Counted from the first letter of the stretch, positions 5 to 11,547 are shown. The stretch: 11,547 bases of DNA from Gemmatimonadota bacterium (GCA_039591655.1 JBDHDE010000090.1:1-11547), one strand, 5' to 3'. Numbers and translations: made by a program. Notes: generated from the sequence alone by a model not told the origin.

Positions 5-184
5 ATGGTGCTGCGCTGCCCCACCTGCCAAACCAACGCCTGGTACGTCCGGGGCGACTTCTTCGGCAAGTGGGTCGTGTGTCCCAAGTGCGAGCGGCCG
101 TTTCCGTGGCGCGACGCCGAGAGGGATGACTCCCGGATCTCGGGTCCCTACGCGACGCGGCTGCCGCAGAAGGAGGAGAAGTAG
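5..184 (+). CDS. Small zinc-ribbon protein (59 aa, MJ0042-type CxxC...CxxC finger); may extend upstream of the window
   Basis: Manual translation from ATG at 5: MVLRCPTCQTNAWYVRGDFFGKWVVCPKCERPFPWRDAERDDSRISGPYATRLPQKEEK*. Two CPxC pairs 17 residues apart; TAG at 182-184 directly abuts the next ATG at 185. Absent from the ORF track because it is under 60 aa. The frame is open to the window edge. Confidence 0.8.
   Translation: MVLRCPTCQTNAWYVRGDFFGKWVVCPKCERPFPWRDAERDDSRISGPYATRLPQKEEK
171..176 (+). promoter_or_regulatory. Shine-Dalgarno site for the gene starting at 185
   Basis: AGGAGG 8 nt upstream of ATG 185, inside the 3' end of the zinc-ribbon ORF. Confidence 0.75.
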
Positions 185-681
185 ATGCAGCAGGTCCGTA
201 ACGCATGGCCGCTCCCGGCGCTCGTCGCGCTGGCATTGGCCGTCCCGGCCGCCGCCCAGGAGCCCCAGGCTCTGGTGATCTCGGCCGAGAACCTCATGGC
301 CGGCGATCAGCAGCACCAGGACCTCGCCCAGCGGGGCGGCGATCCCAACTCGCTGCTCCCCGGCGACGTGGTCCGCTACCAGCTGGTGTTCACCAACATC
401 ATCAGCGACTCGGTCCGCAGGGTCGAGTTCACCGACCCGATCCCCGAGGGCCTGCAGTACGTGGGCGCGAGGACGTCGTCATCGAGTTCTCCAACGACGG
501 CGGACAGACCTACTCAGCACAACCAATGAGAGAAGTGGTCGAGAACGGGTTGCGGGTCATGCGACCCGCCCCGCCTCAGACCTACACGCACATCCGCTGG
601 CGCGTCGGGGGCTGGATTCAGCCCGGCGCGCAGGTAACGGCGGAGTTTCGGGCACGCCTGCCCGAGCCGGGCAACGACTAG
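185..681 (+). pseudogene. Exported single-domain DUF11-like (conserved repeat domain) protein, frameshifted at about 464-466 (true pseudogene or sequence error)
   Basis: Frame of ORF 185..529 gives a Sec signal (..ALALAVPAAA|Q) and DUF11-type motifs LLPGDVVRYQLVFTN and FTDPIPEGLQYVG, then degenerates (ARTSSSSSP). Frame of ORF 205..681 is junk up to 465, then gives the expected continuation REDVVIEFSNDGGQTYS...YTHIRWRVGGWIQPGAQVTAEFRARL to TAG 679-681. Confidence 0.8.
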
Positions 682-713
682 ACCCGGCGTAGGACCGAAC
701 CGAACAACCCCAT

Positions 714-719
714 AGGAGG
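714..719 (+). promoter_or_regulatory. Strong Shine-Dalgarno site for the gene at 725
   Basis: AGGAGG 5 nt upstream of ATG 725, preceded by an A/C-rich stretch (ccgaaccgaacaacccc). Confidence 0.75.
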
Positions 720-724
720 GAGCG

Positions 725-1972
725 ATGCAACGGAAGTTCCTCACCAGGCTAGGAGGCTTGGCCCTCGTCGGGCTGTTCCTGGCCGTGGTCGCTGGCCCAG
801 CATCGGCGCAGACGCCGGAGGGCACGACCATCACGAACTTGGCGGTCGTCAGCTGGACGGACGCCAACAGCAACAGCTACGCGCCGGACAGCGCCAGCGT
901 CGACGTGATCGTCGGCTACCAGGCTGGCGTCGACGTGATCGCGGCTGCCGCCTCGGTCACCCCGGCGTCGCCGAGTACAGACGACACGCTGTACTTCGAC
1001 GTGGCGAACATCGGTAACGGCACCGAAGCCGTGCAAATGGACACGAACACCACGGTGGCCGGCGTCATTACCAACGTTCGCTGGTGGTACAACTCCTCCG
1101 TGTACGCGACGCTGGCTGCCCTCAACGCGCAGCTAGCCTTGTCCACGGACTCCCTGGCACAAGGAGACACGATCGCGATCCGGGTGATCTACGACGTGAA
1201 CTCGGGCCAGGGCGGCCAGTCGACCCGCTTCGATCTGACCGCAACCACCCAGCGAGCTGGCTCGCCGGACACCGACACGGATTCGACGTTCATCAGTCCG
1301 CCCGCGGCGTACGCAGTCGCCGTGACGCCGGATGATTCGGCGGTGAGCCGGCTCCCCAGCAACGGGACCAACTACACGCTCCAGTTCACTGTGACCAACA
1401 ACGGAAACAGTGACGAGGACATCGACGTCATCGCGAGCGTGGATCCCGGAACGGCGCTCACCATCGTGTCGGTGGGCGGCCTGGCGGGCGACAGCAACCA
1501 GGTCAACGTCACCGCCGTCGGTGGAACCGCGACGGTCGACGTGGTGGTCTCGGTCGGCGACGTCGCCGCGGGAACACTCGACACGCTGTTCCTGCTGGGT
1601 CGCGTCGTGGCGAACCCCGCTACGACGGACAACGGCAACTACAACGTCACCGTCATTCGCCCGAGCATCAACATCGCGAAGGCGGCCTACCGGGACGATC
1701 AGTCCACACTGATCAACACCGGCGGTGGGGACCGCGTGGTACCTGGTGAGTTCATCCAGTACCTCATCACGGTCACCAACAACGGCGACGCGGACGCCTC
1801 CAGCGTGCACGTCGACGACACCCTGCCGGGCCAGGTGACGTACGACTCGAACACCCCTGACGCCGGGGGCTGGACGATCAACGAGGCGGCGGGCGACATC
1901 GACGCCGATCTGGCGGGAACGCTGGCTCCAGCGGCCAGTCGGTTCTTCTGGGTCCGGGTCCAGATCAACTAG
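725..1972 (+). CDS. Exported DUF11-domain protein, putative major fibre/pilin subunit (signal peptide, N-terminal beta-hairpin, two Ig-like domains, C-terminally truncated DUF11)
   Basis: Sec signal ending GPASA|Q29; T/V/D/A-rich beta composition; two repeats with F.V.N.GN (YFDVANIGNG, QFTVTNNGNS); C-terminal INIAK...VVPGEFIQYLITVTNNG...VDDTLPGQVTY...GTLAPAASRFFWVRVQIN matches the DUF11 (PF01345/TIGR01451) pattern. The pilin role is inference. Confidence 0.9.
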   Translation: MQRKFLTRLGGLALVGLFLAVVAGPASAQTPEGTTITNLAVVSWTDANSNSYAPDSASVDVIVGYQAGVDVIAAAASVTPASPSTDDTLYFDVANIGNGTEAVQMDTNTTVAGVITNVRWWYNSSVYATLAALNAQLALSTDSLAQGDTIAIRVIYDVNSGQGGQSTRFDLTATTQRAGSPDTDTDSTFISPPAAYAVAVTPDDSAVSRLPSNGTNYTLQFTVTNNGNSDEDIDVIASVDPGTALTIVSVGGLAGDSNQVNVTAVGGTATVDVVVSVGDVAAGTLDTLFLLGRVVANPATTDNGNYNVTVIRPSINIAKAAYRDDQSTLINTGGGDRVVPGEFIQYLITVTNNGDADASSVHVDDTLPGQVTYDSNTPDAGGWTINEAAGDIDADLAGTLAPAASRFFWVRVQIN

Positions 1973-1977
1973 GAGCG

Positions 1978-2904
1978 ATGCAGCCTCCTATGAGGTGTTT
2001 CGGGGTTTCGTTCGGTAAGGACGGGCAGAGGCCCGCACGCGGCCTTCGGGTCGTGCGGGTCCTCTGCCTGCTCCTGCTGCTCGGGGTGCTGGCGCCGGCA
2101 GTGCGGGCCCAGACCCCAGCAGGGACGCAGATCAACGCGTTCGCCGTCGTCAGCTACGAGGCACCGAACGGGGCCGTTTTCACCGCGCAGTCCAGCGTAG
2201 TCGTGATGATCGTCGCGCAGGTAGCAGGCGTGGATGTGGAACCGCCGCGCTCGGCTATCGGCGATCCCGGAACGACGGTCGTGTTCAATCACACGCTGGT
2301 CAACGTGGGGAACGGCACTGACGACATCACTGTGACCGCCACCTCTCGAGTGGGTTGGCCGGTACGGGTGCACGTGGACGCCAACACGGACGGCACCCTC
2401 GACGCCGGCGATCCCCAGGTGAGCGGCCCTGTTACACTGGCCATGGCCGACACCGCATACCTCTTGGTCGCGGTGGACGTGCCGGCATCAGCCATCGTTC
2501 GCGGCACGACCGACACGGTCGACGTGGTCGCCACCAGCGGCTTCGACCCGTCCGTGACGGACGCGCTGATCGACGAGCTGTTCATTCAGGATGTCGGCGT
2601 CCTCGTCTCCCTGACGAAGGTGGTGGACCGCCCGACGGCGACCACCGGGGACGTCCTGACCTACACCATCACCTACATCACGACGGGCATCAACACGGCC
2701 ACGAGCGTGCAAATCGCGGACGTGATCCCGGTCGGCGCGACGTACCTCCCCGGCACCCTGCTGTGGAACGGAACGCCGCAGACCGACGCCGCCGATGCCG
2801 ACGCCGGCTTGTTCGACAACCCGGGGAATCGGGTCGTCTTCAGCGTCGGTGACCTCAATGGCGGCGACAGTGGTACGGTGAGCTTCCAGGTGAGGGTCGG
2901 CTGA
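1978..2904 (+). CDS. Exported DUF11-domain protein, paralog of the upstream gene, putative minor subunit (one Ig-like domain plus truncated DUF11); start uncertain (ATG 1978, ATG 1990 or GTG 2053)
   Basis: Hydrophobic signal LCLLLLLGVLAPAVRA|Q; mature N-terminus QTPAGTQINAFAVVSY resembles QTPEGTTITNLAVVSW upstream; both share AGVDV and N.GNGT; DUF11 motifs VSLTKVVDRPTATTGDVLTYTITY, IADVIPVGATYLPGTL, GDLNGGDSGTVSFQVRV. Stop overlaps the next start (TGATG). Confidence 0.88.
   Translation: MQPPMRCFGVSFGKDGQRPARGLRVVRVLCLLLLLGVLAPAVRAQTPAGTQINAFAVVSYEAPNGAVFTAQSSVVVMIVAQVAGVDVEPPRSAIGDPGTTVVFNHTLVNVGNGTDDITVTATSRVGWPVRVHVDANTDGTLDAGDPQVSGPVTLAMADTAYLLVAVDVPASAIVRGTTDTVDVVATSGFDPSVTDALIDELFIQDVGVLVSLTKVVDRPTATTGDVLTYTITYITTGINTATSVQIADVIPVGATYLPGTLLWNGTPQTDAADADAGLFDNPGNRVVFSVGDLNGGDSGTVSFQVRVG
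2022..2070 (+). promoter_or_regulatory. Strong intra-operon RNA hairpin with C(UUCG)G tetraloop (mRNA stabiliser or attenuator candidate)
   Basis: GGCAGAGG(2024-31)/CCTCTGCC(2061-68), CCCGCAC(2032-38)/GTGCGGG(2053-59) and GGCC/GGTC closing TTCG (2045-48). It starts about 50 nt after the 725..1972 stop and has no U-tract. Confidence 0.65.
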
Positions 2905-5900
2905 TGTCGCGCCGCAGCCGCCGGATGGGCTTCAGCCATCTCGCGCGTCGCGCGGTCCAGCTGTTCGTGCTGGCCGCCGCGGTGTGTGGGCCGGTCGAGC
3001 TGCGTGCGCAAACCGTCGTGAGCAACACCGCCGGCGTGTTCTACGGAACCCTCGCCGGCCCGGATTCGAGCTTCTCGAATGCGGCCAACACCAACCTCAT
3101 GGCCCGGATCGGCGAAGAGCTCGAGTACACGATCCAATTCGACAACGGATCTGCCACGACCGAAGCTCGCAGCGTGCAGCTGGTCGACACTCTGCCCACC
3201 GGTCTCGAGTACGTGTCGGCGACACCAGCCGCAGTTATAAGCGGCCAGGTGCTGACATGGGACCTGGGCGATGTCGCGCCGGGTGCTTCCGCACAGGTCG
3301 TCCTCCGGGTGCGGGTGACCCAGGACGTCCGCGACACGCTGCGCGTGCGGAACGTGGCGGTGCTCGGTGCGCTCAATGCTCCGGCCGAGCTGGCCATCGC
3401 ACCCGAGGTCGAGCTGCTCGGTCCCGACGCCTCACTACTCGGCATCGAGAAGACCGCCGATGTCGTGGAGGTCGGGCTGGGTGAGACGGTTCCCTATACC
3501 ATAACGTTGGAGAACACCGGGGTCGTGCCGGTCAGCGACCTGCGGATCCACGACTCGCTCCCGGCGGGCGTGGAGTTCTCGGGGGGATCGCTCCTCGGTG
3601 CAGATTCGATGCAGCTCAGTGGACGTGAGCTGATCTTCTACGTTGCGGGACCGCTGGATCCCGGCGAGACAGTCAGCGTGCACTACGCCGCTGCAGTCGT
3701 CTCCCCAGAGACAGACGTAATCGAGAACCGCGCCTACGCGACTGCCGAGAACAACCTCGTGGTGTCCGAACCGGTAGTAGCCTGGGTGCGTGTGCGGACC
3801 AGCTATCCGATGGAGACCCGGACCGCTATAGGTAAGGTCTGGCTCGACCTGGACGCCGATGGCTACCAGGACAGCGACGAGCAGGGCGTAGCCGGAGTGG
3901 ATATCTGGACCGACGACGGTGAGGTCTCGACCACCGATAGCGAAGGCAAGTTCTCGTACCCCAACGTCCGTCCGGGACACCACGCGTTCCGGCTGGACCG
4001 CAGCCGCAGCACCGTGCCGGCGTCCTACCGCGTCGATGAGGACATCGTCGTTCTCGACGCAGACGGCTGGACGTCGCCGCGCATCACCTTCCGACTCGTC
4101 CCCGCCGAGGCGTTCGTCTCGCAAGTGCAGCTGCCGGTGTCCTGGCGGCTCCACGCACGACCGGTGCACGAGACCCTCGTGCCCCAGGGGGCGCCGCGGG
4201 AGGAGGATCGTGTGACCCTGGCCCGGTTCGAGTCGGGCAGGGCCCAACCGATCCTCGCGTTCGAGAGCCGGAGGTTCCAGGCGCGTCTCGCGCAGCTGCT
4301 CGAAGCGCGGCGCGATTGCCGCCTCGAGATCGCCGGACACGCCGACTACCGTCCGATCCTGCGCGGCCCGTACCGCGACAACTGGGAGCTTTCGTCGGCT
4401 CGAGCTGACTCTCTCGCCGCGTATCTGGAAGCGCTCGGCCTCGCCGCTGGTCAGGTCAGCACCGAGGGCCGTGGCATCAACGAGCCCGTGGCTGCAGGCA
4501 GGGATCCCGTCTCGCTCCAGCTCAACCGCCGGGCCGAGGTGCAGTTGGTCTGCCCCGGCGTGGACGCGCTGACGGCCGAGGCACAGACGGTGGAGTATGA
4601 GGCCCTCATCACCAACCCCTTCGACGTCCCGGTCAGCGGGATCGCCGTGCGGTTCGAGCCCGCCCCCGACTCTGCGGTGGTGCTCCTCGGCGACTCGATC
4701 CTGGGACGCTTCGCTGGCGAGCGGGTAGACCTGCCGCTCGTGCCGCCGCAGGCCGAACTGTTGGTTCGTGCCTGGGCGCCCGCCGGCGCGGACTCTATTG
4801 CCGCCGTGCTGGAGAACGTCGGCCGGCAGCCTGAACGGCTGCTCGCTCAGGTCCACAACCCGATCGTCGAGTACGAGGCGACCAGCCTCGGGAGCGCCGT
4901 GGTGGATAGCGCTCTCCCGCCGACGGTGGCGCCGCTCGGCACCACTATCGACATCGTGCTCCAGCCCGAGCCGGCCGGGTGGCCCGCAGTGACCTACCCG
5001 TTGCCGGAAGGCTGGCAGTTCGTGCCGGGTTCCGCCCGGATCGGCGGAGAGCAAGCACCCGAGCCCAAGGTGGAGCAGGACCGCACCGGCGCCCCGGTGC
5101 TGGCGTGGCACCTCAGGGACCGGGAGATGCAGCCGCTGACCATCACCCTGGTCATGGGCAACGCCATCCCGGTGATGGAAGAGGTGGCGATACCGGCCCT
5201 GCGGACCGCAGCGGACCGGGAGGCCGATGCGGCCAACGCCTTCCTCGCAGGCCCCGCGGTCTCGTTCTTCAACCCCGCCGACGGCAGTGTGCTAGCAAGC
5301 GACCGGCTGTTCGTCGGCGTGAAGGGTGAAGCCGGACAGCCAGTTGTCCTGCTCGACGGCGACTCGGTGATAGGCGAAGCCGTCCTGCGGCCCGACGGCG
5401 TCCACGACTTCATCGGTGTCCCACTGTCTCGCGGGCCCCACCGGCTCCGGGTGCGGATGCACAACTCCTGGAACCAGGACCGCTGGGACAGCCTGGACGT
5501 CCACGTGACCGGTCTGCCTGCCCAGTTCGAGGCCCCGCGCCGCGTCGAGCTGATGGCGGACGGACACAGCATGACCCACGTGCGAGTGCGGGTGCTGGAC
5601 GCCTGGGGCGTGCCGGTGGTGCACCCCACGGCTGTCACCGTCTCGGCGGAGGGCGCCGAGCCCGTGGGCGACGACGCCGATCACTCATCGGTCGGCCATC
5701 AGATCCGCACCAACGCCGCCGGCTGGCTCACAGTCGCCTTGACACCGGGTCGTAACGTGGGCCCCGGCCTGCTGACGCTCACCTACGGCGACGTGATCAG
5801 CGACGTAGAGCTCGAGCTCATCGCCGCCGCGCGGCCCCTCATGCTCACCGGCGTGGGACGCATCGGCGTCGGTGCGGCCCCTGACGCGATGGGCACGATC

Positions 5901-8285
5901 ACGGCGCGCGGGCGCCTGGACCGTCGCACCTCGGTCACCCTGACCTACGACTCCCGCCGGGTCGACGGCGGTCGCGGCGCGTTCGGCCGCGACGTCAACC
6001 CGTTGGACGAGGCGCAGGATCCGATCTTCGGGGACGCCAGCCAGGTTCGCACGGTGAGCGCTTCCCGCGAGGTGTTCTCCGCCCGCATCGAGCGCGGCTT
6101 CGACTGGCTGGCGGCCGGCGACGTGAGCACCAGCGATTTCTCCGCAGGCCTGAGGCTGAACGCCTACCAGCGCTCCCTCTCCGGCGGCGCGGCCCGGATC
6201 ACCACGGGTCCGGTGGTGTGGCGCGGCTTCGGGAGCCTCACCAGCCAGCACATCGCCCAGACACAGATCCGAGGCGACGGGATCTCCGGACCGTATCAGC
6301 TAGCGCTGAACATCCTTCCCGGGACCGACCGAGTCGTCATCGAGACCCGGGCCCGGGAGAACGCCGAGCGCGTCCTGAGCCAGCAGGCGGTGACGCGCCA
6401 CATCGACTATCAGATCGACTACGAGCGGGGCACGCTGATGTTCAAGCGGCCGGTGCCCGCAGCCGATCCCTATGAGAACCCGGTCTTCATCATGGTGACG
6501 TACGAGGCCCAGGGCGGCGGCGAAGACCGCCTGGTGGCCGGTGCCCGGGCGACGTTCGACGCCGGCCGCCTGATCGACGCACCAGGGCTGAGGACCTTCG
6601 AGTTCGGCGTTACCGGCGTCCGCTCCGACGAGCCCACTGGCGCGCACTATCTGGCGGGCGCCGACCTGCGGATGGTGCACACACGGGCCGTGACCCTCGG
6701 TGCGGAGGTCTCCTACTCCGAGACCCCCGACTCCAGCGGCTATGCCGTCGCCGCGGACGGAGAGGTCCGGTTCCTCAGTGGCCACGTGAGCCTGAACGGC
6801 CGCTACATGCGGGTGGACCCGGGGTTCGGCAACCCGTCGAACGTCGGGGTCGTGGCAGGCACCGAGGAGTATGGCTTCGGCGGCGGGCTCAAGTTCGGGC
6901 CCACCCGGCTCCGGGCATCGCACCAGCGCCAGCGCTTCACGCTGCAGGGTGTGGAGCGGTCGCGCACCACGATGGGCATCGAGCAGTCGGTGGGGCGGCA
7001 CCTGAGCCTGGACCTCACCGGCAGCGACGACCGGTTCAGCACCGGTGGCGGCACCGACATCTCGCAGGCCGGCGAGGCGGTGCTCACGTTCTCGCCCATC
7101 TCGAACCTCAGGCTCTGGACCGAGGGCCGCTACCAGTTCAAGCAGGAGGGCAACCTGGTGCTCCCGGACCATCTGGGCGGCGGCGCTGCCTGGCGGGTGA
7201 GCCGCGGAGTGAGCCTCGAGGGCCGCTTCCGCCGGGTCCACCTGCCCGACGGCTCCACTAGCTACTCGGTGGCCAACCTCGGCGTCCAGACCGACCTCGG
7301 CTTCGGCACCAGGGCCTGGGGCAAGTACCGGCTGGCGGGCGGCGCCTCGGGCAGCCACAGCGCCGCGGTGATCGGTCTCAACAACCAGCTGCGCCTCGGC
7401 TCGGCCCTGCAGCTGAACACCATGTTCGAGCGCCGCTTCGGCCTGAGCAGCGCGCCCATCGAGGACCCGGTCCGGGCCCTCCCGTTCGTCCAGGCGGAGG
7501 AGGACTACTGGAGCGCCGGCCTCGGAATCGAGCTGGTGCCGACCAACGGCCCGTACCGCCTCTCCGCCCGCGGCGAGTACCGGGACGGCGATTTCCTCTC
7601 CTCCCAGCTGGCGACGCTGGGTGGCGAGGTCGCGATCAGCCGTTCATTCGCGATTCTGTCGCGCAACGAGTACGTGCGCACCGAGCGCGCCGTGGCCGGC
7701 GGGCCCGGCGAGAGCCGCCGCATCTGGTCCCTGTGGGGTCTCGCCCTGCGGCCCATCAAGACCGACGCAGTCAACATCCTGGGCAAGTTCTCCTGGGTCG
7801 AGGAAGAGAACCCCCTGGGCGGCGGCGTGCTGACACAGGTGGGCGAGGAGCAGCGCATCATCGCAGCAGGCGAGATCATCTTCGCCCCGTTCGCCTCCAC
7901 GGAGCTGGCCGGTCGCTACGCCTACCGGCGGACCCAGGCAGACGCAGTGGTGCAGGACAGCCTGCTCCAGCAGCGCACGTCACACGCCGACTACATCGGC
8001 GCCCGGTTCAGCCAGTACTTCACCCGCTGGCTCGGTGTCCGGGCCGAGGGCCGCTACCTGTACGAGCGCACCAGCCGCGCCCAGCGCTGGGACGCCGCGC
8101 CTTCGCTGGTGCTCCGGCTGATCGAGGGTGTCGAGGTTGAGGGCGGCTACCGGTTCGGCGACCTGCGGGACCCGGACTTCTCGGTGCGCGGCGGCCACGG
8201 CTGGTTCATCACCTTCAGCGCCCGGATCACCGAGCAGATCTTCCCCACCGCCCTGGACTTCTGGCGGCCCCGCTTCAGCCGCTGA
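2904..8285 (+). CDS. Large multidomain outer-membrane protein (1793 aa): DUF11 x2, SdrD-B-like domain, OmpA/MotB-like peptidoglycan-binding domain, further Ig-like domains, large C-terminal beta-barrel
   Basis: Signal ending VELRA|Q36; DUF11 motifs at about 3102-3420 and 3438-3800; IGKVWLDLDADGYQDSDEQGVAGV...TTDSEGKFSY (SdrD-B-like, from 3828); FESGRA...IAGHAD..P....NWELSSARA...GRG..EPVA...NRRAEV (OmpA-C/MotB-like, about 4227-4550); LMADGHS...VRVLDAWGVPV (Big_1/invasin-like, about 5510-5830); about 800 C-terminal residues of Gly/aromatic-rich alternating amphipathic strands. Confidence 0.9.
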   Translation: MSRRSRRMGFSHLARRAVQLFVLAAAVCGPVELRAQTVVSNTAGVFYGTLAGPDSSFSNAANTNLMARIGEELEYTIQFDNGSATTEARSVQLVDTLPTGLEYVSATPAAVISGQVLTWDLGDVAPGASAQVVLRVRVTQDVRDTLRVRNVAVLGALNAPAELAIAPEVELLGPDASLLGIEKTADVVEVGLGETVPYTITLENTGVVPVSDLRIHDSLPAGVEFSGGSLLGADSMQLSGRELIFYVAGPLDPGETVSVHYAAAVVSPETDVIENRAYATAENNLVVSEPVVAWVRVRTSYPMETRTAIGKVWLDLDADGYQDSDEQGVAGVDIWTDDGEVSTTDSEGKFSYPNVRPGHHAFRLDRSRSTVPASYRVDEDIVVLDADGWTSPRITFRLVPAEAFVSQVQLPVSWRLHARPVHETLVPQGAPREEDRVTLARFESGRAQPILAFESRRFQARLAQLLEARRDCRLEIAGHADYRPILRGPYRDNWELSSARADSLAAYLEALGLAAGQVSTEGRGINEPVAAGRDPVSLQLNRRAEVQLVCPGVDALTAEAQTVEYEALITNPFDVPVSGIAVRFEPAPDSAVVLLGDSILGRFAGERVDLPLVPPQAELLVRAWAPAGADSIAAVLENVGRQPERLLAQVHNPIVEYEATSLGSAVVDSALPPTVAPLGTTIDIVLQPEPAGWPAVTYPLPEGWQFVPGSARIGGEQAPEPKVEQDRTGAPVLAWHLRDREMQPLTITLVMGNAIPVMEEVAIPALRTAADREADAANAFLAGPAVSFFNPADGSVLASDRLFVGVKGEAGQPVVLLDGDSVIGEAVLRPDGVHDFIGVPLSRGPHRLRVRMHNSWNQDRWDSLDVHVTGLPAQFEAPRRVELMADGHSMTHVRVRVLDAWGVPVVHPTAVTVSAEGAEPVGDDADHSSVGHQIRTNAAGWLTVALTPGRNVGPGLLTLTYGDVISDVELELIAAARPLMLTGVGRIGVGAAPDAMGTITARGRLDRRTSVTLTYDSRRVDGGRGAFGRDVNPLDEAQDPIFGDASQVRTVSASREVFSARIERGFDWLAAGDVSTSDFSAGLRLNAYQRSLSGGAARITTGPVVWRGFGSLTSQHIAQTQIRGDGISGPYQLALNILPGTDRVVIETRARENAERVLSQQAVTRHIDYQIDYERGTLMFKRPVPAADPYENPVFIMVTYEAQGGGEDRLVAGARATFDAGRLIDAPGLRTFEFGVTGVRSDEPTGAHYLAGADLRMVHTRAVTLGAEVSYSETPDSSGYAVAADGEVRFLSGHVSLNGRYMRVDPGFGNPSNVGVVAGTEEYGFGGGLKFGPTRLRASHQRQRFTLQGVERSRTTMGIEQSVGRHLSLDLTGSDDRFSTGGGTDISQAGEAVLTFSPISNLRLWTEGRYQFKQEGNLVLPDHLGGGAAWRVSRGVSLEGRFRRVHLPDGSTSYSVANLGVQTDLGFGTRAWGKYRLAGGASGSHSAAVIGLNNQLRLGSALQLNTMFERRFGLSSAPIEDPVRALPFVQAEEDYWSAGLGIELVPTNGPYRLSARGEYRDGDFLSSQLATLGGEVAISRSFAILSRNEYVRTERAVAGGPGESRRIWSLWGLALRPIKTDAVNILGKFSWVEEENPLGGGVLTQVGEEQRIIAAGEIIFAPFASTELAGRYAYRRTQADAVVQDSLLQQRTSHADYIGARFSQYFTRWLGVRAEGRYLYERTSRAQRWDAAPSLVLRLIEGVEVEGGYRFGDLRDPDFSVRGGHGWFITFSARITEQIFPTALDFWRPRFSR

Positions 8286-8337: not shown

Positions 8338-8531
8338 TGGTCTCGTTCCGCCGTCTCCTCCCGCGCTCTCCGCGCAGCATCTAGGGTTCGGATCTCCCCC
8401 GCGACCAGCTCGCTGAACTGGGTCAGCGTGCGGCTGAGGGCCGCAACCTTGGCACCGGTAGTGGCCGACTCGGCGGGCTCAGTGAAGCGGCTCACGCCGT
8501 GGCCCCGCCGACACACGACGTCTATCTTCAC
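8334..8531 (-). pseudogene. Probable 3' remnant of a PqiC/ABC-transport auxiliary lipoprotein-like gene (or a small hypothetical protein)
   Basis: SRFTEPAESATTGAKVAALSRTLTQFSELVAGEIRTL resembles the last strand plus amphipathic helix of PqiC-family proteins as I recall them. No signal peptide or lipobox, and an in-frame TGA lies immediately before the GTG at 8531. Resemblance judged by eye. Confidence 0.4.
8523..8528 (+). promoter_or_regulatory. Candidate sigma70-type -10 element for the M24 peptidase gene
   Basis: TATCTT (TAnnnT) 30 nt upstream of ATG 8559 in GC-rich DNA; the same hexamer precedes the next gene; no good -35 element. Confidence 0.35.
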
Positions 8532-8558
8532 TCACGCCCCGATCCGAGAGCTATCACG

Positions 8559-9914
8559 ATGCTGTCACGAAGCTGGCTCCTAGTGTTTCCCGCTGCGCTC
8601 CTCGCTGCCCCGGCTGCCGCCCAGACCGTCACGCCCGAGCGCCCCTTCGGCACGCTGCGGGAACAGGCGGCCGTGCAACAAGCGTGGCTTGAGGAGCGCC
8701 TCGAGACCGTGCTCCCCCGCCTCATGCGGGAGTACGACGTCCAGATGTGGATTATCCCCATGCGGGAGTACAACGAGGACCCCCTCTTCAAGGCGCTGGC
8801 AGCGCCCACCGGCTTCGCCGCTCGGCGGCGCACGGTATTCATCTTCTTCGACCGCGGGCCGGAGGAGGGTGTGGAGCGGCTCACCATCGGCGGAGGCTCG
8901 CAGGGCGGCGTGTACGAGGTGATCCGCGAGACCGAGCAGGCGCCCGACGGCCGCCCCAGGGAGTTCTGGGGCCAGGACCAGTGGCAGGTGGTGGCCAAAG
9001 CCATCCGGGAGCGGGACCCCAGGAACATCGCGGTCAACATCTCCCGCGATCTCAGGTTCGCCGACGGGCTGAGCGCCGGCGAGTGGGAGCAGCTCCAGGA
9101 GGCGTTGGGCCCCGACCTGCTCTCACGGGTGGTGCGGGCCGAGCAGATGGCCCTGGACTACCTCGCCATCCGCGTGCCGGCGATGGATTCCACCTACCGC
9201 CGGATGGAGCAGCTGGTGCACGAGCTCATCGCCACCATGTTCTCCAGCGAGGTGATCACCCCCGGGGTCACGACCACCGAGGACGTGCGCTGGTGGTTCC
9301 GCCAGCGTCTCAACGATCTCGGCCTCGGCACCTGGTTCCACGCGTCGGTGGGCATCCAGCGACGGGGGACGAGCATGGCCGACTCGACCGACCCCGTGAT
9401 CCAGCGCGGCGACGTGCTCCACTGCGACGTGGGCGTTACCGCCCTGCGGCTCAACACCGACACCCAGCACATGGGCTACGTGCTGCGGGAGGGGGAGACC
9501 GACGCCCCAGCGGGACTCGAGGAGGCGCTGTACAATGCCAACCGGCTGCAGGACATCCTGCTCGCCGAGATGCGCCCGGGTCGCACCGGCAACGAGATCC
9601 TCTTCTCCGCCCTGGAGGCGATGCGGCAAGCAGGGATCGATGGCACGATCTACACCCACTCCATCGGCGAGCACGGCCACGGAGCGGGCCCCCTCATTGG
9701 GCTGTGGGATCGGCAGGACGGCGCGCCGGGTCGTGGCGACGTCACACTGCGGGCCGGCACCTGGCACTCCATCGAGCTTCAGGCCACGACGCCCGTGCCG
9801 GAGTGGGACGACCAGCGGGTCCGCATGATGCTGGAGGAGGAGGCGGCGCTCACGCCGCAGGGCGAGATGCGCTGGGTGCTGCGGCGCCAATCCGCGCTGC
9901 ACCTGGTGCGGTAG
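8559..9914 (+). CDS. Exported M24-family metallopeptidase (Xaa-Pro aminopeptidase-like), 451 aa
   Basis: ATG 8559 (GAGAG upstream) gives the Sec signal MLSRSWLLVFPAALLAAPAAA|Q, preferred over the GTG at 8499. Pita-bread-fold metal ligands appear in order: GDVLHCDVG, NTDTQH, YTHSIGEHGH, SIEL, LEEE. Confidence 0.9.
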   Translation: MLSRSWLLVFPAALLAAPAAAQTVTPERPFGTLREQAAVQQAWLEERLETVLPRLMREYDVQMWIIPMREYNEDPLFKALAAPTGFAARRRTVFIFFDRGPEEGVERLTIGGGSQGGVYEVIRETEQAPDGRPREFWGQDQWQVVAKAIRERDPRNIAVNISRDLRFADGLSAGEWEQLQEALGPDLLSRVVRAEQMALDYLAIRVPAMDSTYRRMEQLVHELIATMFSSEVITPGVTTTEDVRWWFRQRLNDLGLGTWFHASVGIQRRGTSMADSTDPVIQRGDVLHCDVGVTALRLNTDTQHMGYVLREGETDAPAGLEEALYNANRLQDILLAEMRPGRTGNEILFSALEAMRQAGIDGTIYTHSIGEHGHGAGPLIGLWDRQDGAPGRGDVTLRAGTWHSIELQATTPVPEWDDQRVRMMLEEEAALTPQGEMRWVLRRQSALHLVR

Positions 9915-10075: not shown

Positions 10076-11547
10076 ATGAACAGACACAAGTTCTACGGCC
10101 TTGCGGCCTTGGCCCTGTTTGCGGTGGGCTGCGCCTCAAGCGGCCAGCAGACAGCCACGCAGGCGATGCCGGCGGCGGCGCCAGAGAAGATGGCAGTCGC
10201 GGCCGAACTGGCCATCAAACCGATCGAGCCGCATCGCTTCGACATGGGCAAGATGTGGACCTTCGAGAACGCCCCGGTGGACTACTTCGAGGAGGCCTAT
10301 GGGTTCCGCGCCACCGATGAGTGGCTGGAGACGGCGCGCATGGCCGCGCTGCGGATTCCCGGCTGCACGGCGTCGTTCGTGTCCGCCAATGGCCTGGTGA
10401 TGACCAACCATCACTGCGGCCGGGGCCACGTCTCGCGGGTGACCCGCGAGGGCGAGAACCTGCTGGACGAGGGGTTCTACGCCGAGACGCTCGAGGACGA
10501 GCGCCAGGCACCCAACATGTGGGCCGACCAGATGATCGTGCTGGAGGACGTCACTCAGCTGGTGCGCTCCGCCATCGATCCGACGGCTACCGATGACCAG
10601 CAGGTGGAGGCCCGGGATGCCCGGATGGAGGCAGTCGGTGACAGCGCCAGCGTGGCGCACGACCTGCAGTGCAGCGTGACAGAGCTGTACAACGGCGGCA
10701 AGTACTCGATGTACTGCTTCAAGCGGTACACCGACGTGCGGCTGGTCATGGCCCCCGAGCTCCAGATCGGGTACTTCGGCGGCGACCCCGACAACTTCAC
10801 CTACCCGCGGTACAACCTGGACTTCACGTTCTTCCGCGTGTACGAGAACGGCGAGCCCGTTACGCCGCAGACCTACTTCGAGTTCGACACCGACGGCGTG
10901 GCCGAGGGCGACGCGGTCTTCGTGATCGGGAACCCCGGCTCCACGGAGCGTTTGAGCACCTTCGCCCAGCTCGAGTTCAACCGGGATTACCGCGAGCCGT
11001 TCATCACGCGGCTGCTCCAGAGCCGGACGGACATCCTGAAGATGTACATGGAACACCACCCGGAGGAGCGCGCCAATTACATCAACCAGTGGTTCGGCTG
11101 GATGAACAGCTTCAAGCTGTATGCCGGCCGCACTAAGGCGCTGAACGATCCGGAGATCATGGGCCGCAAGCTGGGCTGGGAGATGCAGTTCCGGCAGGCG
11201 ATCCAGAGCAACCCCTCCCTCAACCGGCAGTACGGCACCCTGTGGGACGAGATCGCACAGCTGCGCGAGGAGATGGGCCAGCACTATCCGGTGCTGATGG
11301 CTCTGGCCACAGGCGGCGGGATCCGGGCCCGGACCCTGGGCACCGCGGCGCAGATGGTGCAGTACGCACAGATGGTCCAGGCGGGTGGCCCGGAGGACGA
11401 GGCACAGCAGCTGCGGGCGCGGATCGAGGGCGCCGAGATCAACACCGACCTCGACGGCCACATGCTGGAGGCGCAGATCGCCGACGTGGCACACCTGCTG
11501 GGGGCCAGCGATCCCTTCACACAGATGGTCCTGCAGGGTCGCAGCCC
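10076..11547 (+). CDS. S46-family dipeptidyl peptidase (DPP7/DPP11-like), predicted lipoprotein; 3'-truncated by the window end
   Basis: Absent from the ORF track because it has no stop in the window. GAGGA RBS at 10067-71; [19 protein letters not shown]19 lipobox; S46 motifs [25 protein letters not shown] (catalytic His), [34 protein letters not shown] (catalytic Asp), [12 protein letters not shown]. The catalytic Ser lies beyond the window. Confidence 0.93.

Follow-up and report, generated by a model that had tools for sequence, protein, structure and literature searches.

What might four adjoining genes build together when all of them encode exported proteins with DUF11-like modules? This question is raised by positions 185 to 8,285 of a DNA stretch of 11,547 nucleotides (nt) from a Gemmatimonadota bacterium (GCA_039591655.1 JBDHDE010000090.1:1-11547), herein called the window, which makes up an entire contig (C90) of a 3.3 Mb genome that is 95% complete. 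An earlier note, made from the sequence alone, had proposed a pilus or fibre system with a dedicated outer-membrane platform. In the following, we report that this operon is real and conserved, and that its genes 3 and 4 appear, from sequence comparison, to be one protein cut inside a DUF11 domain. The resulting split-domain mechanism, together with a tip adhesin encoded upstream in relatives, is an addition to that earlier reading, and makes it fairly probable that the gene products pair with one another and assemble into a fibre.

The divided DUF11 domain

As the earlier note had described, the four genes are co-oriented and tightly spaced, with gaps of 43 nt and 5 nt followed by a 1-nt overlap (TGATG), and all of them carry DUF11: the model TIGR01451 scores over its cut-off in genes 1-4 and PF01345 in genes 2, 3, and 4, with gene 1 below the cut-off (expectation value, E, 2e-4). 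The postulated Sec export is likewise supported, since each of the four proteins has an N-terminal leader of the signal-peptide type (judged by eye). The layout is as follows (aa, amino acids; Ig, immunoglobulin):

185..681, + strand: gene 1, signal peptide and a single truncated DUF11, about 165 aa if intact; frames 185-529 and 466-681
725..1972, + strand: gene 2 (415 aa); its signal peptide and donor hairpin precede two Ig-like domains, both complete, and a truncated DUF11 as the C-terminal acceptor
809..913, + strand: donor hairpin of gene 2 (residues 29-63, including Asn38), immediately behind the predicted signal-peptidase site
1658..1969, + strand: gene 2 acceptor, residues 312-415 with Lys319 and Asp365; DUF11 profile positions 11-83 of 114, up to the stop codon
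1978..2904, + strand: gene 3 (308 aa); here the signal peptide and donor hairpin are followed by a single Ig-like domain and a truncated DUF11 acceptor (Lys214, Asp248)
2904..8285, + strand: gene 4 (1793 aa); after the signal peptide come a donor hairpin (Asn41), two DUF11, SdrD-B, OmpA-like, and Ig/Big-like domains, and the C-terminal module
3009..3101, + strand: donor hairpin of gene 4 (residues 36-66), the same segment as that behind the gene 3 C-terminus in fused homologues
4227..4547, + strand: OmpA/MotB-like peptidoglycan-binding domain of gene 4, residues ~442-548
5826..8282, + strand: C-terminal module of gene 4, residues 975-1793, 819 aa; predicted outer-membrane beta-barrel, no named family

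DUF11, since renamed CLIPPER, is known from a crystal structure (9IFR) with a Lys715-Asn806 bond that is catalysed by Asp748 (PMC12617251; this and the other reports cited are drawn on as far as their accessible parts go). In the operon, the DUF11 domain at the extreme C-terminus stops at profile position 83 of 114 in gene 2, 84 in gene 3 (match 2-84), and 76 in the upstream adhesin of relatives (match 2-76); gene 1, as judged from intact homologues, ends within the same range of 76-84. Complete DUF11 repeats span positions 1-111 or 1-113. The truncated domains of genes 2 and 3, herein called acceptors, retain the Lys and the Asp and lack the last two strands including the one that bears the Asn, so that no Lys-Asp-Asn triad is found within the terminal domain of either chain. 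The mature N-termini of genes 2, 3, and 4 supply precisely this Asn strand together with the next one, that is, a donor hairpin.

How the halves belong together is indicated by natural fusions. In 82 of 120 gene 4 (barrel) homologues, and at 49 of 52 loci, gene 3 is fused to the N-terminus of gene 4. In these fusions, the gene 3 C-terminus is followed after a few residues by the exact segment that opens mature gene 4, which rebuilds a whole domain. Lys, Asp, and Asn are all present at 77 of the 82 fused junctions, with median Lys-Asp and Lys-Asn spacings of 34 and 104 residues, as compared to 33 and 91 in 9IFR (PMC12617251) and 34 and 92 in the complete internal domain of gene 4, the second of its internal DUF11 with the full triad K183, D217, and N275. 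Because the two halves form an ordinary domain once fused, genes 3 and 4 of the window are best understood, at the level of sequence, as one protein that was cut inside this domain and whose gene 4 part acquired a new leader. In most relatives, gene 3 is consequently not a free minor subunit. Its paralogy with gene 2, as claimed in the earlier note, is confirmed over the N-terminal parts (34% identity over 131 aa, E 2e-9).

An AlphaFold2 model of mature gene 2 (predicted local distance difference test, pLDDT, 93.7; predicted template modelling score, pTM, 0.71) has three Ig-like domains preceded by a hairpin of two strands. These strands comprise mature residues 7-14 and 27-34 at a pLDDT of 91-94, and structural matches to the first domain begin at mature residues 36-40, past the hairpin. 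Searches of the model with Foldseek and VIA-align gave generic tandem Ig matches (best Z 11.4) with no standout among the matches listed, and sequence searches of the PDB with gene 2 and a gene 2 profile returned nothing significant. For gene 4, PDB sequence matches were confined to OmpA/MotB-like and SdrD domains. One structure, 7WRK (TTHA1873, a hypothetical protein of 160 aa from Thermus thermophilus), matches the gene 2 model at mature residues 284-387 (Z 9.7, root-mean-square deviation 2.2, 100 residues) and, judging from this model, may represent an acceptor-only protein of the gene 1 kind with a known structure; it was not retrieved by sequence with three gene 1 queries.

Conservation of the operon and its predicted barrel protein

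Gene counts were derived from the best 80 of 83 confirmed Gemmatimonadota loci fetched with the C-terminal module as bait, with co-occurrence being scored in the 43 loci that have at least 8 kb upstream (37 loci with shorter flanks were left out). Gene 1 is present in 42 of these 43 loci, gene 2 in 42, gene 3 in 41, and an adhesin acceptor in 39. The proposed gene-neighbourhood check thus came out in favour of the system, as barrel homologues do co-occur with the subunit genes. A locus without genes 1-3 beside the barrel (L033) was dismissed as an exception, its adhesin, zinc ribbon, and gene 1 start lying elsewhere in the genome, before a run of N. In a single draw of 301 genomes of the phylum, the barrel module occurs in 36, of which 22 hold a close type and 14 a distant type only. 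Gene 1 occurs in 22 genomes, of which 21 also hold the close barrel type, and in none of the 14 with the distant type only; co-occurrence among kin genomes is not independent and is given here as a pattern rather than a statistic. In G282, no gene 1 match accompanies the close barrel type; G247 is the opposite case, with gene 1 but not the close barrel type.

Outside the phylum, the C-terminal module is represented by 1,725 cluster representatives (50% clustering, E<=0.001). A cluster of the small gene, one or more subunit genes, and the barrel gene was found in six of seven plasmid records matching the module, the carriers being Acinetobacter (with frameshifts), Deinococcus, the cyanobacteria Synechococcus and Kovacikia, and the Alphaproteobacteria Pacificitalea and Novosphingobium. 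Similar clusters thereby occur in four further phyla or classes besides Gemmatimonadota. Some loci deviate in layout: Eleftheria (L030) has a two-gene arrangement of giant plus barrel without small subunits, and the gene 1 homologue of L092, L095, and L104 adjoins gene 2 but is encoded on the other strand, in divergent orientation.

The adhesin gene usually comes first in the cluster and encodes ~430 to 2,400 aa across relatives, with Laminin-G/lectin-like and DUF2341 domains in the two that were scanned. As the window starts where its contig starts, this gene is cut off here; pieces of the genome's own adhesin lie on C71 (1-~5,900, - strand) and C149, and its C-terminus was not found in the genome. 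In some loci, the adhesin-type gene is doubled or the subunit occurs as two to three paralogues (L076:12421-15774, L106:1-3619, L028:9047-13885), which suggests interchangeable tips or mixed shafts.

Gene 1 is an acceptor alone, a single domain of ~140 aa without a donor hairpin, and its profile matches the CLIPPER domain of 9IFR (E 0.0025). At the Lys position, its homologues carry Ala (47 of 49) or Val (2 of 49), and because of this exchange the protein could hold a donor, albeit not lock it. Among the acceptors, those of the adhesins give gene 1 a somewhat better score (median 30 bits) than those of gene 2 (22) and gene 3 (23), and its role may possibly be that of a periplasmic chaperone or of an alternative tip. 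All of these conclusions rest on intact homologues: the small single-domain protein of the earlier note does have one truncated DUF11, but is not an intact open reading frame here: as compared to G010 and G005, 19 nt are missing near 465, which leaves its sequence divided between two frames. The missing 19 nt are present in near-identical contigs from sequencing runs X1 and X4, which belong to two studies, and also in a more distant contig from X3. A second gap of 45 nt affects gene 4 at 3100/3101, right after the donor hairpin, and costs the first internal DUF11 of this protein its initial strand, the one with the Lys (as compared to P0004); these 45 nt are held by runs X1 and X2. Both gaps are errors or lesions specific to this assembly or strain. 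At window position 3998, conversely, the window has 6 nt that X1 and X2 lack, by which gene 4 is longer by two residues near residue 366.

The large barrel that had been predicted for the 1793-aa protein is likely an outer-membrane beta-barrel, as judged from several sequence features. Residues 1205-1793 contain 21 strong alternating stretches, as compared to 4.3 +/- 1.8 in 300 shuffles. Among 23 scanned homologues from the distant group and the plasmids, six match barrel families at E <0.002, such as SlpA_C (1.5e-7), MtrB_PioB (3.2e-6, over cut-off), OMP_b-brl (3e-6), and DUF2490; DUF5777 and BBP2 were matched as well, and one further distant homologue matches IAT_beta below threshold (E 0.0013). 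The nearest Atlas clusters of the module, which count as one source of evidence, are unnamed or called 'outer membrane protein', with an 'outer membrane protein family protein' among the neighbours at 0.97. PF00577 is found in 35% of the members of a single neighbour at rank 28 (score 0.84), which is below the tool's lead threshold. On the window protein itself, by contrast, no Pfam barrel family scores over its cut-off. Autotransporter, TpsB/Omp85, and intimin-type barrels gave no match on this protein or on 14 close members, a search of the PDB by sequence with the module profile found no relative, and a profile comparison of the barrel module with gene 2 gave no similarity.

The peptidoglycan-binding domain is well supported in the window (OmpA-family match at residues 459-541, E 7e-11), but PF00691 is listed for only 40 of the 120 homologues, some of which are fragments, and is thus optional in the family. 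In P0368, a barrel homologue of 1,629 aa, three SPOR domains stand in place of OmpA and DUF11, by sequence another peptidoglycan-binding tether on the barrel module.

The distant barrel type consists of single genes of 2,100-5,324 aa in Gemmatimonadota genomes without gene 1. All five that were scanned have complete DUF11 repeats before the same module (9, 11, 12, 22, and 29). These single-gene giants, of 2,294-5,324 aa, are located as follows:

L114:2004-17975, - strand
L117:2180-15007, - strand
L115:6872-14779, + strand
L119:8032-14913, + strand
L120:3457-11535, - strand

Because 9-29 DUF11 repeats are fused to the barrel in this type, the part N-terminal to the barrel is suggested to be displayed outside the cell. 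The operon thus looks like an autotransporter-like adhesin that was cut into parts which could be re-joined and repeated.

A candidate donor-hairpin fibre and its alternatives

We consider it reasonably likely that the operon encodes a donor-hairpin fibre of the order tip adhesin-(gene 2)n-gene 3-gene 4, partly covalent, grown and threaded out via gene 4, with gene 1 as a reversible cap. All parts would be exported by Sec via their leaders, with the donor starting at the cleavage site predicted from the sequence, and the acceptor of one protein would be completed by the donor hairpin of the next, just as in the fusions of genes 3 and 4. The shaft would consist of gene 2 repeats, no other free protein combining donor and acceptor with an intact triad. 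By analogy to the CLIPPER crystal structure, the acceptor Lys would bond to the donor Asn with the acceptor Asp as catalyst, and junctions without a partner residue would stay non-covalent, for example that of gene 3 to gene 2 in this strain, where the gene 3 donor has Ala54 at the Asn position. Gene 1, as an acceptor without the Lys, may cap donor hairpins reversibly in the periplasm until exchange. The chain would then exit the barrel tip first and grow at its periplasmic base, and growth would stop once the gene 3/4 donor captures the last acceptor, with gene 3 acting as basal adaptor, gene 4 as export pore and anchor, and the optional OmpA domain as a tie of the platform to the cell wall.

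The best-surviving alternative, which we nevertheless regard as unlikely, is a split adhesin of fixed length, in which one or few copies of each protein rebuild a short stalk with no long homopolymer. The distant barrel type is indeed a single-gene stalk of fixed length, gene 3 would be merely a detached piece of gene 4, and the gene 2 donor and acceptor gave no covariation signal (see below). The residues of gene 2, however, speak for pairing beyond a one-copy chain. Among 166 homologues, the acceptor positions are nearly invariant (Lys319 in 165, Asp365 in 165), and the position of Asn38 is Asn in 139, Ser in 25, and Asp in 2. This Asn is kept in 13 of 13 loci in which the adhesin acceptor is without Lys, the Lys is kept in 12 of 13 loci in which the gene 3 donor is without Asn or Asp, and in L054 and L076, where both partner residues are lost, gene 2 retains both its Asn and its Lys. 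Such a pattern fits self-pairing, whether as polymer or as closed monomer, better than a one-copy chain. Gene 1, moreover, is needed only with the split type, in line with control of repeated assembly, and splitting a stalk would presumably bring little gain unless a part repeats.

A second alternative, to which we assign a distinctly lower probability, views the barrel as an anchor only: the subunits would be exported otherwise, for example by type II secretion or vesicles, and polymerise outside on the gene 3/4 arm, and gene 1 would cap the tip or start the chain. The closer similarity of gene 1 to the adhesin acceptors would suit its use as a stand-in tip, and a precedent exists in GhpB/C, barrel-plus-OmpA anchors of a DUF11 filament that is secreted elsewhere (10.1101/2024.01.29.577165). 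A module of ~820 aa with dozens of alternating stretches nevertheless exceeds the needs of an anchor, and the cluster moves on plasmids across phyla with no secretion gene inside. That there is no surface fibre at all, gene 2 being self-closed or part of a periplasmic strut between outer membrane and cell wall, is very improbable: a closed monomer might explain the hairpin pLDDT and the pTM of the monomer model, and an OmpA-like domain does sit between arm and barrel, but the upstream gene with Laminin-G/lectin-like and DUF2341 domains (~430-2,400 aa) has the typical features of a tip adhesin, the periplasm would likely be too narrow for stalks with as many as 29 DUF11 repeats, and OmpA is missing from two thirds of the homologues.

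Several points weigh against the donor-hairpin fibre. The gene 2 pattern fits self-complementation within one molecule equally well as polymerisation, structural constraint alone could explain the retention of its residues, and the loci are related, so that the residue counts are not independent. Because the gene 2 Lys stays where the donor Asn is Ser (25 of 166), a conserved Lys need not mean a bond; in the neighbouring proteins, Lys is found in 26 of 39 adhesin acceptors and Asn in 34 of 51 gene 3 donors. Covariation in the 166 gene 2 homologues (effective depth 65) recovered the hairpin register and intradomain pairs but no donor-acceptor signal, with 13 such pairs among the top 387, where ~19 were expected by chance. 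As for the platform, the sequence features of the barrel are partly common to soluble beta-sandwiches, and the position of the OmpA-like domain between donor arm and barrel means that the arm would have to remain in the periplasm unless it doubles back through the pore. Finally, the copy in this strain may be decaying, because gene 1 is frameshifted and a strand of gene 4 is missing.

More tentatively, since it combines all of the above steps, the donor-hairpin fibre could represent a widespread, undescribed class of diderm pili: enzyme-free covalent fibres made with a split self-crosslinking domain (similar to SpyTag/SpyCatcher), a Lys-less decoy chaperone, and an own giant barrel derived from a single-gene adhesin, with the barrel protein supplying the terminating donor. 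If true, this would add a new pilus class and an outer-membrane export family for diderms (>1,700 clusters at 50% identity), assign a function to many genes annotated as 'DUF11 domain' or 'OmpA family', and mean sortase-free covalent pilus assembly in Gram-negative cells. A comparison of fused with split forms outlines a route from a single-gene adhesin to a multi-subunit fibre, and covalent protein tags could be drawn from the natural donor-acceptor pairs, for which the predictions are residue-specific.

Known systems and neighbouring features

Chaperone-usher pili of type 1 or P are built in the order FimH-FimG/F-FimA(n)-FimI with the help of the chaperone FimC/PapD and the usher FimD/PapC. 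The parts list that the earlier note had likened to them holds in the logic of tip, helper, and platform: Sec export, incomplete Ig folds completed by the N-terminus of the next subunit, a tip adhesin that goes first, and a small periplasmic helper encoded in the same operon as an outer-membrane platform would all be shared. It fails in that the small protein is a Lys-less acceptor, which would receive a strand rather than donate one as PapD does, and the tip adhesin lies upstream of the window. In further contrast, the subunits of the operon are multi-domain DUF11/CLIPPER proteins with a C-terminal acceptor, the donor is a two-strand hairpin with a cross-linking Asn, and the platform itself would provide the terminating donor. 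The usher family PF00577 has no match in the genome (with a positive E. coli control) nor in 14 module members, and gene 1 and two intact homologues match DUF11-type families only, with no two-domain chaperone of the PapD family. With neither usher nor PapD chaperone, the operon was rejected as a member of the chaperone-usher systems, and the proposal of a non-homologous assembly system survives these tests. The same applies to other known routes that the note had reported as missing: the sortase family PF04203 has no match in the genome (three controls were positive), no LPxTG was found in the five reading frames tested, and a pattern scan of five frames together with a Pfam scan of the operon proteins was negative for a prepilin cleavage motif and curlin repeats.

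The operon shares with the CLIPPER domain of 9IFR the family (PF01345), the Lys-Asp-Asn triad, and a matching spacing (PMC12617251). The difference is that the whole domain is repeated within one chain there, whereas it is split here and the bond would be intermolecular; the accessible text of that report contains no mention of split domains, operons, or a barrel partner. For the chemistry of exchange and locking, BsaA of Clostridium perfringens (TasA family) appears to be the best precedent: its 'exchange and lock', established by mutagenesis, comprises donor-strand exchange followed by an intermolecular isopeptide bond (10.1101/2024.11.04.621531). As far as described in that source, BsaA differs in family, in its monoderm host, in its SipW peptidase, and in being without an outer-membrane barrel. 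TasA-family and SipW models of Pfam and NCBIfam matched none of the operon genes.

Ig-like subunits with donor strands and no classical usher have been described for Saci_0406 threads (PMC9715654), TLP-1 (PMC11494351), Pam pili (PMC13278184), and tat-fimbriae (PMC11821415), with the archaeal thread filament Saci_0406 having an isopeptide bond in addition (PMC9715654). In the accessible descriptions, these differ by single-strand donors and by subunits that are single-domain or otherwise unrelated, and none of them was among the best 50 matches listed per structure search of the gene 2 model. TLP-1 fibrils were accordingly rejected as a relative, for their single-strand donor and for not being among the structural matches listed (PMC11494351).

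Type Va autotransporters resemble the single-gene relatives in having a signal peptide, a long passenger stalk, and a C-terminal barrel. Their barrel has ~300 aa and 12 strands; the module of the operon, in contrast, has ~820 aa and no Autotransporter Pfam match, and most of the passenger comes from separate genes. The grappling hooks GhpA (Aureispira) and GhlA (Litorilinea) are likewise surface filaments of DUF11-like repeats, and 9FLP gave a weak profile match (E 0.024) (10.1101/2024.01.29.577165, 10.1101/2025.08.19.671072). According to the accessible parts of these reports, they nonetheless consist of one giant chain per strand with no split domains, and in Aureispira depend on type IX secretion and PorP/PorE-like anchors. 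These anchors, GhpB/C, were rejected as the same system, since PorP/PorE homologues constitute a different one (10.1101/2024.01.29.577165). Six other reports (PMC13723633, PMC12357932, PMC6329079, PMC12502724, 10.1101/2024.09.26.615229, PMC11145332) were set aside as sharing words only, with no account of the system in their accessible parts. A literature search found no description of the operon, the split DUF11 domains, or the barrel family, with most subscription journals and all supplements, including that of the CLIPPER paper, outside its reach. In agreement with the earlier note, the system as a whole is thus apparently new to the literature, its principles being already known.

The window appears to come from an uncultured bacterium of marine sediment, since the sequencing runs that contain at least half of its words are marine sediment metagenomes; the names of the closest homologues assign it to Gemmatimonadota. 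No RNA run is listed as containing the region, and a scan of the window for promoters and terminators yielded none above shuffled sequences. In order and on the same strand, the window contains a zinc-ribbon open reading frame, genes 1-4, and two peptidase genes. The features that flank the operon are:

5..184, + strand: small cytoplasmic zinc-ribbon open reading frame, 59 aa from the ATG at 5, CxxC-x-CxxC, without signal peptide; its stop abuts the gene 1 start
8499-9914, + strand: M24 metallopeptidase, downstream of the operon
10076-11545, + strand: S46 dipeptidyl peptidase, downstream of the operon

The M24 and S46 peptidases also follow the operon in G010; because the pair is not kept there in G005, G022, or G020, both are probably unrelated neighbours. 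On C71, a sigma-54-type response regulator and a sensor kinase (by eye) lie upstream of the adhesin piece, as they do in L022, L023, and L024, and this pair may control the operon. The zinc-ribbon frame, which had no match above cut-off in a family scan, is found between adhesin and gene 1 in 19 of the 43 loci (by BLAST score) and is probably a member of the operon in this lineage, with a possible role as regulator or assembly factor; in L055, a copy lies downstream of the barrel gene.

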